Shown here in pieces: positions 47,274-50,070 of a DNA stretch of 64,000 nucleotides. The stretch's first letter is position 1, and every line of letters begins with the position of its first letter. The position numbers and the translations under genes were made by a program. The stretch is from Dictyostelium discoideum (taxonomy: Eukaryota). Location of the stretch: NCBI GenBank assembly GCA_000004695.1, contig CM000152.2, forward strand, positions 6,144,001-6,208,000, in the 5' to 3' direction. Below the pieces are notes generated by a model, which saw only the letters and a program-made list of their open reading frames with translations, was not told the DNA's origin and ran no database searches.

Positions 47274-50070
47274 TTATTCATCAATTGGATCAGCAAAATG
47301 AGAATTTCTATGATGTAAATTAATTGGATCATTAATTTGAATTGATTTTCTTCTAAGATCACGTGATTTTGAACCATCACCCATTAAAGTTGTAATTTCA
47401 CCCATTGAGAACCAAAAGAATTGGTATGGTTCTAAATCCATTGTAACATAACCTTTTTGATCTACCATCACTTGATAATCTGTTAAAATATCTATTAAAT
47501 AATGTGATTGTTCATCATAGGAAGCAGTTTCAACATTTAAAAATGAAACAAATGGTTGTTTAGTATCTTTTGATGCTTCATATTCTTCTTTGGTTGTTAA
47601 AGGTTGAAGATGTTGTTGTCTATTTATATTTGATTGTTGATAATGAGTATGAACTTTTCTAGTTGGAATTGGTGTAACTTTTGAACCTGATAAATTACCA
47701 CCTGCACCATCAACTGTTAAAGTATTACCAAAATTACTTGTAATATTTGAAATTCCATCATTATTACCACCACCACCACCACCACTAGTATTTGTACCGC
47801 CAATTCTTGAACCAATACCACTTGCAATACCATCACCACTATTACTAGCAGTTCTACGATGAAGTGATCCACCACCACCACAAATTGAAGATTGATGAGT
47901 TGATAATGATGGTAAAACTGGAGTAGCATGAGTATGTAAAGTAACTTTTTGAACTTGATCAGAAAGATTTTGAACAATAAACATTCTATCAATACCACAA
48001 ATTCTCATATAGGAAGCAATATGTGGATTATCAGAGTTTACCCATTGGAATGAACCATGACCAAATGAGAGATGTTTTCTTCTTCTTTGAATCATTTGAC
48101 GAATTACTTGATAGAGTGAAGATGGATCTTTTTCAGATTCAACAACATTCACTTTTTGATAGCCATATTCGGGATCATCGATAACTGGTGCATAGAGTTT
48201 ATTTGAAGTTGAGAAACCACCATTGGGTGGTTGATCAGACCATTGCATTGGAGTACGTACACCATGACGATCTTCTAACCAAATATTATCACCCATACAA
48301 ATTTCATCGCCATAGTAAATGATTGGTGAGCCTGGTAATGTAAACAATAGAGAATAGGCTAACTCGATCTTTCTTTGATCACCACCCATCAATGGTGCCA
48401 AACGTCTACGTATACCTAAATTAATTCTCATTCTTGGTACTGGTGCATAGAAATCCCACATTTCTTTACGCTCATCCTTTGTAACCATTTCCAATGTCAA
48501 TTCATCATGATTTCTTAAAAAGGTTACCCATTGACATGTATTTGGTATCTCTGGTGTATTCTCCATAATACTACGTAAACATTCACTCTTACTTCTCATA
48601 ATTGACATATATATTCTTGGCATAACTGGAAAATGAAATCCCATATGAAATTCATCACCATCTCCAAAATATTTTCTAACCTCATCTGGCATTTGACATG
48701 CTTCTGCTAATATAATTCTACCTGGATATTTATCATCAATAAATTTTCTCATCTTTTTTAAAAATTCATGAGTTTCTGGTAAATTTTCACATGATGTTCC
48801 TTCTCTTTCAACTAAAATATATAAATATTTATTAGAATTTAAAATAATAATAATAATAATAATAAACTTATTAATTTAATTAATTACTTACAAAGATATG
48901 GTACAGCATCAACTCTAAAACCATCAATACCTAAATTTAACCAAAAATCTATAATATTTAACATTTCTTGTTGAACTTTTGGATTATCAAAATTAAGATC
49001 TGGTTGTTCTTTATAAAATCTATGCCAATAATATTGTCCTGCTGCTTCATCCCATGTCTATAAAATTATTATTATTATTATTATTATTATTATTATTATT
49101 ATTATTATTATTATTATTATTATTATTATTATTATTATTATTATTATTATTATTATTATTATTATTATTATTTTAAAAATAAAAGAAAATGTTAGAGAAA
49201 AAAATAAAAATCAAAAAGAAAAAAGAATATAATTAATGATTTACCCAATTTGATTGTTCAACATCTAAAAAAATGATTCTTGCATCTTTATATTTTTGTG
49301 GGGAATCAGACCAAACGAAATAATCTCTATATGGTGAATCTCTTGATAATCTTGCAGATTGAAACCATTTATGTTTATCTGAACAATGATTTGGAATGAA
49401 ATCAGCAATGATCTTCATATTTCTTTCATGAACTGCTTTAACTAAAATTTTAAAATCATTCAATGTACCATAATCTGGGTGAATATCACAATAATCTGAA
49501 ATATCATATCCATCATCCTACATATATTAATAAATAATTAAAGAAATGGATTGGATTAGTTTTTTTTTTTTTTTTTTTTTTTTTTTTTTATATTTCTATT
49601 TATTTTCACTTACTTTTAAAGGTGAAGGGTAAATTGGTAATAACCAAATACAATCAACACCTAGTGTATGCAAATAATCCAATTTATTTGTAATACCTGA
49701 AATACCACCATTACCAGTTCCTTCAATATCACAAAATGCCCTAACATAAACCTAAAAGTTAATTAAAAATAAAAATAATTAATTAAAGTTAATAAAATAA
49801 AAAGAAATAATTAATTTTTTTTTTTTTTTTTTTTTTTTTTTTTTTTTTTTTTTTTTTTTTTAATTTATATACTTCATAAAAAATTGCTTCTTTGTACCAT
49901 AGGTTATTGCTAACCGACATTTCTGACCTTTCATGCTCGGAATAATCTAAAAATTCATCAGTTGAATTATTTAGTGGTGGTGAGCTTATAAATTGTTGTG
50001 TTAATGTATCCCCTGATGATAAAGATAACATATTTTCAATTGAATTACCTAATCCATTTGGTGTTGTCAT
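47274..50070 (-). CDS. Trehalose synthase / maltose alpha-D-glucosyltransferase-like GH13 enzyme (TreS-like), about 770 aa in 5 exons: 50070..49873, 49751..49614, 49517..49245, 49056..48891, 48811..47274. It carries a Gly/Ser/Thr/Asn low-complexity insert before the C-terminal beta-sandwich domain.
   Basis: 'WYKEAIFYE|[46 protein letters not shown]|DDGYDISDY…[16 protein letters not shown]…|[33 protein letters not shown]…[11 protein letters not shown]|[16 protein letters not shown]…[11 protein letters not shown]…[65 protein letters not shown]' and the C-terminal '…[10 protein letters not shown]'. These are the hallmark TreS blocks in order. Intron phases were checked as consistent. Confidence 0.75.
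49078..49170. repeat. (ATT)n microsatellite of about 31 units inside intron 3 of the TreS-like gene.
   Basis: Direct reading. Confidence 0.9.

Follow-up and report, generated by a model that had tools for sequence, protein, structure and literature searches.

A trehalose synthase gene of bacterial type in Dictyostelium discoideum with introns shared among Amoebozoa

Introduction

Does Dictyostelium discoideum, whose trehalose synthesis is classically ascribed to the trehalose-6-phosphate route, also own a trehalose synthase (TreS) of bacterial type, and how could such a gene have come into an amoeba? The question is raised by a locus within a 64,000-nucleotide stretch of contig CM000152.2 (positions 6,144,001 to 6,208,000; hereafter the window, in which all positions are counted from its first letter). 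A sequence-only reading had proposed for the interval 47274-50070 a TreS homologue acquired horizontally long ago and relevant to spores, for which trehalose serves as the chief protectant and as the fuel of germination. We found that the limits of this interval coincide precisely with the stop and start codons of a minus-strand gene identical to DDB_G0282715 of D. discoideum AX4. Very likely, DDB_G0282715 is a nuclear gene of bacterial origin which has been inherited vertically and codes for a TreS of glycoside hydrolase family 13 (GH13; EC 5.4.99.16), with a presumed cytosolic location and a reaction attributed by homology.

Results

The gene consists of five exons and four introns (Table 1), and its coding sequence of 2313 nt is translated into 770 amino acids (aa). 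With TIGR02456, the NCBIfam equivalog model of TreS, the product reached 775.3 bits (cut-off 678.35, E = 2.8e-233, profile positions 2-500 of 539), whereas the runner-up family model scored 298 bits with a cut-off of its own at 900. Alpha-amylase and Malt_amylase_C were the sole Pfam hits. Eighteen TreS entries among the PDB sequences matched at 580-681 bits, above all similarities to eukaryotic GH13 proteins (rBAT and alpha-glucosidases, 258 bits at most); the non-TreS GH13 proteins oligo-1,6-glucosidase and mammalian rBAT scored 258 and 245 bits, respectively. The interpretation as a eukaryotic alpha-glucosidase was rejected on the basis of these scores, and the tree described below, calculated without eukaryotic GH13 sequences, places the protein inside TreS. 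The next-best matches were MutB, a GH13 sucrose isomerase/trehalulose synthase, and oligo-1,6-glucosidases of the GH13_31 type, which share the GH13 barrel and the catalytic machinery with the product. They showed 26-30% identity in structural alignments and 222-258 bits, and the product remained far under the cut-offs of the sucrose isomerase and oligo-1,6-glucosidase family models. Over the 487 residues aligned with bacterial TreS, which span all four exon junctions, only one gap of 2 aa occurs; the junctions are therefore correct. Crystallised TreS of bacteria shares 55-62% identity with the product. With the TIGR02456 score above cut-off and this collinearity, the proposed bacterial-type TreS homologue with its sequence blocks in order was borne out.

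An AlphaFold2 model of the product, for which an alignment of 46 sequences served as input, had a predicted template modelling score (pTM) of 0.75 and a predicted local distance difference test (pLDDT) above 90 for 499 residues. The model was confident in regions 57-555 and 693-731, which represent the predicted folded part of the protein, while pLDDT values below 50 were obtained for residues 1-54, 556-692 and 732-770. According to the model this folded part is a complete TreS fold with (beta/alpha)8 barrel, subdomain B, TreS-specific modules and a C-terminal beta-sandwich (domain C). The best 28 matches of a Foldseek search against the PDB were all TreS. Superposition on TreS 5X7U of Thermobaculum terrenum gave a TMt of 0.90 and a root-mean-square deviation of 1.1 A; together with the enzymes of Deinococcus radiodurans (4TVU) and Mycobacterium smegmatis (3ZO9), TMt values were 0.82-0.90. 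Structural alignments to bacterial TreS showed 53-57% identity over ~500 columns. In contrast to these bacterial proteins, the D. discoideum protein contains a 56-aa N-terminal extension, a 131-aa loop in domain C and a 44-aa C-terminal tail, and its gene is interrupted by introns. No maltokinase domain was found by Pfam, unlike in the TreS-maltokinase (TreS-Mak/Pep2) fusions of the GlgE pathway, and the 270 extra residues are low-confidence, low-complexity segments.

The residues of the -1 and +1 subsites and of lid closure were defined from the D. radiodurans TreS (DrTreS) structures (PMC11342931) and mapped onto the D. discoideum protein. Sixteen of the 17 residues are conserved, namely D113, Y116, H156, R192, D197, Q221, R251, D253, Y257, E295, H360, D361, E362, E366, N389 and R440. 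They include the catalytic triad of bacterial TreS, with the nucleophile D253, the acid/base E295 and D361, as an alignment check proposed by the sequence-only reading would have it. Conserved are also the TreS-specific +1 and closure residues R148, D153, E320, E324 and N347 of DrTreS (PMC11342931), which correspond to R192, D197, E362, E366 and N389; in the non-TreS outgroup, Arg, His or Thr is aligned with Glu366. The catalytic residues D253, E295 and D361 and the invariant His and Arg positions of GH13 regions I, II and IV (H156, R251 and H360) are kept in all 44 eukaryotic sequences of the tree described below and in most bacterial ones. On these grounds the enzyme is probably a TreS isomerase.

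Neighbour-joining trees were calculated from 494 columns, one with 164 sequences and 200 bootstraps and one with 185 sequences and 100 bootstraps, the latter extended by named GTDB genomes and by eight GH13 proteins other than TreS as outgroups. The split between TreS and outgroup was supported by 100% of the replicates; the D. discoideum sequence was placed inside TreS, in agreement with the earlier proposal, and sucrose isomerases and oligo-1,6-glucosidases were placed outside. Eleven named Amoebozoa and 31 environmental sequences formed one clade with 61-66% support. The environmental sequences are ~2-kb transcript-like contigs, most of which encode the N-terminal extension. With two further sequences, P0041 and P0059, the clade comprises 44 eukaryote-like sequences and has 98-100% bootstrap support. 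P0059 is regarded as eukaryotic because its 23.9-kb contig carries WW/FYVE, RRP4, mitochondrial-carrier and WD40 genes; a search with this RRP4 found no close named relative, which is a caveat on a restriction of the clade to Amoebozoa. Another candidate, the bacterial-looking P0252, shows Cys297 along with an extended N-terminus and was rejected as eukaryotic, since its contig, with genes for class II ribonucleotide reductase and PPK2, is bacterial. Within the clade, Dictyostelia (99%) and Dictyostelia together with Physarum and Clastostelium (100%) were recovered in agreement with the species tree.

A monophyletic group of bacterial TreS without the eukaryotes was found in 0% of the bootstraps. 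In 51% of the replicates, the eukaryote clade was joined with a bacterial group of 37 members, Anaerolineales included, one of which (P0047) lies in a genuine bacterial dcw-cluster context. The median distance between the eukaryotes and this group was 0.50, compared to 0.63 between this group and other bacterial TreS, and a scan of GTDB genomes identified Anaerolineae/Anaerolineales as the nearest named bacteria with 56-64% identity. Because the eukaryote clade is nested inside bacterial TreS and bacterial monophyly obtained no support, there is good support for an ancient bacterial origin, before the amoebozoan radiation. An 'Anaerolineae-like' donor has a node support of 51%, and the support of the relevant nodes, 22-51%, is too low to name one.

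Orthologues were identified in D. citrinum, D. firmibasis and D. dimigraforme, which fall into the same 90%-identity cluster, and in the other dictyostelids Polysphondylium violaceum, Tieghemostelium lacteum, Acytostelium subglobosum, Heterostelium album and Synstelium. Beyond the dictyostelids, they occur in Physarum, Clastostelium, Nematostelium and Protostelium nocturnum as well as in Acanthamoeba castellanii (annotated as 'trehalose synthase'), Balamuthia mandrillaris and Vermamoeba vermiformis, so that the distribution covers Evosea, Discosea and Tubulinea. The amoebozoan orthologues are 559-777 aa long, and all named eukaryotes in the best 120 hits were amoebozoans. The A. castellanii orthologue (XP_004367663.1, cluster of P0015/P0144) belongs to the same eukaryotic clade as the D. 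discoideum protein and shares with it the Cys at the +1 subsite and the N-terminal DY.xH(E/D) motif. It differs by a short domain C loop and by the lack of the RRxS tail.

For a comparison of intron positions, annotated proteins were mapped to their genomic loci with an exact spliced matcher. All four D. discoideum introns share codon and phase with introns in other Amoebozoa, Discosea included. The position of intron 1 (phase 0, between FYE and VYV) is common to T. lacteum, Balamuthia and D. citrinum, that of intron 2 (phase 0, between SPLK and DDGY) to A. subglobosum and P. violaceum, that of intron 3 (phase 0, between SNW and TWDE) to the latter two species, Balamuthia and Acanthamoeba, and that of intron 4 (phase 1, between PYL and F) to Balamuthia and Acanthamoeba. 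The D. citrinum gene contains the complete set of four. Acanthamoeba shares two of these positions, but its gene has 16 introns; the exact Acanthamoeba protein is encoded by an intron-less 2.1-kb Logan contig (L005), which we read as a transcript, implying that the Acanthamoeba introns are spliced.

Ratios of non-synonymous to synonymous substitution rates (dN/dS) were determined between D. discoideum and D. citrinum (dS ~0.27). The overall value was 0.086 with an intact reading frame. Low values were found for the core (0.037), the N-terminal extension (0.028) and the last strands of domain C (0.021), and higher ones for the C-terminal tail (0.18) and the insert (0.30). The single nested clade, the shared introns and the dN/dS of the core agree with the old and fully domesticated acquisition proposed from the sequence, and support a greater age of the gene than was implied there.

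The exact-sequence look-up which identified the spliced product as DDB_G0282715 (XP_640223.1, EAL66217.1, UniProt Q54S16) showed that it is named 'hypothetical protein' by NCBI and 'maltose alpha-D-glucosyltransferase' by UniRef; its 90%-identity cluster holds eight further Dictyostelium proteins. The gene is thus already part of the reference annotation, a correctly described and largely ordinary member of a known enzyme family. Its four AT-rich GT...AG introns, as originally described, have GC contents of 4-12%, compared to 28-33% in the exons. Intron 1 contains an A47 run (T47 on the plus strand, 49815-49861) and intron 2 an uninterrupted homopolymer of 30 nt (T on the plus strand, 49560-49589). 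The microsatellite in intron 3, previously counted as (ATT)31, is a perfect (ATT)36 at 49065-49172 on the plus strand. The corresponding introns of D. citrinum are rich in AT and free of perfect homopolymer or ATT runs; intron 3 is AAT-rich with an imperfect repeat.

Outside the catalytic core, the DYSEHE-type motif of the N-terminal extension is conserved in Dictyostelia, Physarum, Acanthamoeba and Balamuthia. The insert is composed of 17% Gly, 13% Ser, 11% Thr and 8% Asn and contains a (GGT)n repeat at 47766-47785, scored as (ACC)6.7. As pLDDT is below 50 over residues 556-692, the insert is predicted to be disordered and to connect two strands of the beta-sandwich as a loop, and four strands following it complete domain C in the model. 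The length of this loop is ~8 aa in bacteria and rises to 50-70 aa in other dictyostelids, which share a KTPxPTR(K/R)xH motif in it, and to ~130 aa in group-4 Dictyostelium; the earlier estimate of roughly 120 aa is therefore fair as a net insertion. The lengths of the poly-Gly runs in the insert vary among D. discoideum isolates and sister species, e.g. CGGGGS of AX4 is SVGGGGGGGGGS in another isolate, and islands of 21, 19 and 18 residues around these runs are conserved.

The motif PYQFFWF (aa 720-726), which had been taken for the end of the protein, forms the last strand of domain C and is followed by the tail (aa 727-770). This tail is confined to Dictyostelia, Physarum and Clastostelium, a clade which forms fruiting bodies, and to environmental relatives of these. 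An RRxS-hydrophobic motif is present in every tailed dictyostelid, in Physarum (RRGSI), in Clastostelium (RRASV) and in two of three environmental relatives of that clade. Variants comprise RRKSI, RRGSI, RRASV and RRPSV, and the C-terminus is acidic (xIxE(D/E)). Orthologues from Acanthamoeba, Balamuthia, Vermamoeba, Protostelium and Nematostelium lack the RRxS tail. Judged by consensus, RRKSI of D. discoideum is a candidate phosphorylation site for a basophilic kinase of the protein kinase A (PKA) type.

The genes flanking the locus (GATA, Med13, RhoGEF-PX, NF-YA) are ordinary Dictyostelium genes. TreS and the RhoGEF-PX gene are separated by a 2.4-kb divergent intergenic region (50071-52525) with a GC content of 5-18%, long T/A homopolymers and TTTATTA-type repeats. 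A tandem array of ComC-like paralogues with DUF7949, DUF7034, DUF7035 and ComC supersandwich domains occupies 7208-23889 on the minus strand, and tRNA genes were not found in the window.

In two eukaryotes, a bacterial-type GH15 gene was observed ~0.5-2 kb upstream of TreS. The Balamuthia protein combines TREH_N and Glyco_hydro_15 domains in the manner of bacterial GH15 trehalases. Among named organisms, the GH15 protein is most closely related to Alphaproteobacteria (~40% identity); no dictyostelid relative was among its top 120 hits, and the D. discoideum window contains no such gene. GH15 and TreS could be a co-acquired or functionally linked pair of trehalose genes, a co-transfer being speculative.

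Table 1. Positions of the trehalose synthase gene, its parts and further genes (in the window unless a contig is given)
Feature	Position	Strand	Remarks
Exon 1	49873..50070	-	aa 1-66; N-terminal extension aa 1-56 (49903-50070) with DYSEHE motif
Intron 1	49752..49872	-	121 nt, GT..AG, phase 0, 4% GC
Exon 2	49614..49751	-	aa 67-112
Intron 2	49518..49613	-	96 nt, phase 0
Exon 3	49245..49517	-	aa 113-203; GH13 conserved region I (D151...H156)
Intron 3	49058..49244	-	187 nt, phase 0
Exon 4	48892..49057	-	aa 204 to first base of codon 259; R251, nucleophile D253 (codon 48908-48910)
Intron 4	48812..48891	-	80 nt, phase 1, within codon F259
Exon 5	47274..48811	-	remainder of codon 259 to aa 770 and stop codon
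Codon E295	48702-48704	-	exon 5
Codon C297	48696-48698	-	exon 5; clade-specific
Codons H360/D361	48504-48509	-	exon 5
131-aa insert (aa 553-683)	47538..47930	-	Gly/Ser/Thr/Asn-rich loop between two domain C strands
RRKSI (aa 745-749)	47340..47354	-	RRxS-hydrophobic motif in C-terminal tail, from tail comparison
NF-YA (CBFB_NFYA)	529-2082		
ComC-like open reading frames	7208-8377, 8994-10040, 16620-19145, 22675-23889	-	
Med13-like protein	28168-34485		2105 aa
PHD-finger protein	35495-39400		
GATA zinc-finger protein	43048-45000		
Thr/Ser-rich open reading frame	45836-47092		418 aa; convergent with TreS, ends 181 nt from TreS stop codon
RhoGEF-PX gene	52526-54952	+	
Balamuthia GH15	L003 2326-5486	-	adjoins TreS at 6001-8441
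GH15 adjoining TreS in second eukaryote	L007 6919-8130; L008 3913-5190	+ (both)	

Discussion

By homology, the enzyme would interconvert maltose and trehalose by double displacement. Asp253 is expected to form a covalent glucosyl-enzyme intermediate, with Glu295 as acid/base and Asp361 as stabiliser of the transition state. The closed active site, shaped by R192, E362, E366 and position 297, would hold the released glucose and allow its rotation and re-attack via O1 or O4. In the proposed history, the gene entered an amoebozoan ancestor or an earlier eukaryote from a bacterium, would then have gained spliceosomal introns and was presumably inherited vertically under strong purifying selection. 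Eukaryotes would have added the DYSEHE-type N-terminal extension and the disordered domain C loop, which may have grown to 131 aa in group-4 Dictyostelium, and Eumycetozoa the C-terminal tail with the RRxS motif.

Several points weigh against this picture. The only mapped residue which is not conserved, N253 of DrTreS, corresponds to Cys297 in D. discoideum; every one of the 44 eukaryote-like sequences has Cys here, compared to 112 Asn, 12 Asp and 4 Cys in 133 bacterial TreS. The Trp found two residues further on in bacteria is Met or Leu in eukaryotes (Met in D. discoideum). Asn at this position of the +1 subsite was described as optimal for isomerisation (PMC11342931). The DrTreS variant N253C had 46% of the wild-type isomerase activity and an approximately four-fold higher hydrolase activity (31.5 compared to 8.1; PMC11342931, Table 1), and since this exchange halves isomerisation and raises hydrolysis, the balance of both activities in the amoebozoan enzyme is uncertain. 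As N253C nevertheless retains nearly half of the isomerase activity, Cys297 is better regarded as a variant within the family than as a reason for exclusion from TreS. Among eukaryote-like sequences, position 154 is also changed, being Pro where bacteria have Leu or Ile. In the papers searched we found no enzyme assay of any amoebozoan TreS and no mention of DDB_G0282715, related searches giving indirect citations of Binova et al. 2017 only; in a search for expression data, the gene was not listed in the supplements of PMC4931340 and PMC5923282. The phylogeny, finally, was obtained by neighbour-joining only, its deep nodes have 8-51% support, and 32 of the 44 'eukaryotic' sequences are environmental contigs judged to be eukaryotic by their N-terminal extensions and transcript-like structure.

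One can ask whether the amoebozoan enzyme has shifted from isomerase to hydrolase, acting mainly as a maltase or trehalase that releases glucose, now that Cys has taken the place of the +1 Asn, the residue by which Glu366 is held and the site closed. The fixation of Cys297, the exchange of the nearby Trp and the hydrolytic N253C variant argue for such a shift, which we consider unlikely: Amoebozoa already own dedicated trehalases, the other closure and +1 residues (R192, D197, E362, E366, N389) are all kept, and the co-fixed changes at 299 and 154 could compensate. Moreover, in saturation mutagenesis of N253, Cys alone among 19 substitutions retained substantial isomerase activity (PMC11342931). 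Less probable still is a predominance of the direction from trehalose to maltose as in mycobacteria; the amoebozoan enzyme would then feed a maltokinase/GlgE alpha-glucan pathway, or merely mobilise trehalose during germination, instead of serving synthesis. The reaction is reversible (PMC11342931), and the nearest 50%-identity cluster representatives are mostly 1000-1100 aa long, which we read as the TreS-maltokinase fusions common in bacteria. The Dictyostelium protein, however, has the Pfam domains Alpha-amylase and Malt_amylase_C only, and its amoebozoan orthologues are too short for a maltokinase. In addition, the Acanthamoeba orthologue is apparently induced early in encystment, while trehalose is made, its transcript peaking at ~2 h according to the passage of PMC9283445 which cites Binova et al. 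2017.

The origin of the gene could also be sought without any horizontal acquisition, in an ancient eukaryotic gene inherited vertically and lost outside Amoebozoa. Gene and introns are indeed older than the split of Evosea, Discosea and Tubulinea, and P0059 lies on a eukaryotic contig whose RRP4 is not close to that of any named organism. The nesting of the eukaryote clade in bacterial TreS, its smaller distance to the Anaerolineae-like sequences than that of the latter to other bacterial TreS, and the exclusively amoebozoan named eukaryotes in the best 120 hits make this explanation very improbable. Nothing was found in favour of bacterial contamination, an assembly artefact or a pseudogene, and these readings are refuted by the four spliceosomal introns, the Dictyostelium base composition, the eukaryotic flanking genes, the identical intron set in D. 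citrinum, the eight related Dictyostelium proteins, and the intact reading frame under purifying selection. We therefore favour a TreS of bacterial origin that was acquired before the amoebozoan radiation.

With regard to function, one can speculate that the eukaryotic TreS clade represents a retuned variant. The fixed exchange of the +1 Asn by Cys, together with that of Trp by Met or Leu, might shift the balance between isomerisation and hydrolysis or confer redox sensitivity, and in spore-forming Eumycetozoa the RRxS site and the enlarged disordered loop might subject the enzyme to control of the PKA type. In that case TreS would act as a regulated switch with maltose or glycogen breakdown products on one side and spore trehalose on the other, parallel to the classical trehalose-6-phosphate synthase route. 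We regard this proposal as a whole as conceivable, though doubtful; both the role in spore trehalose and the phosphorylation control are inferred.

The gene itself was annotated before, and earlier work exists on the orthologue of Acanthamoeba; the present analysis adds a confirmation of its nature as well as Cys297, the RRxS tail and the TreS-linked GH15 genes. For the evolution of Amoebozoa, it provides a clean and datable case of a bacterial metabolic gene which was fixed before their radiation and later obtained introns and regulatory-looking tails. For Dictyostelium, a conserved and strongly constrained TreS may offer a second, unstudied route by which maltose derived from glycogen would be converted to trehalose.

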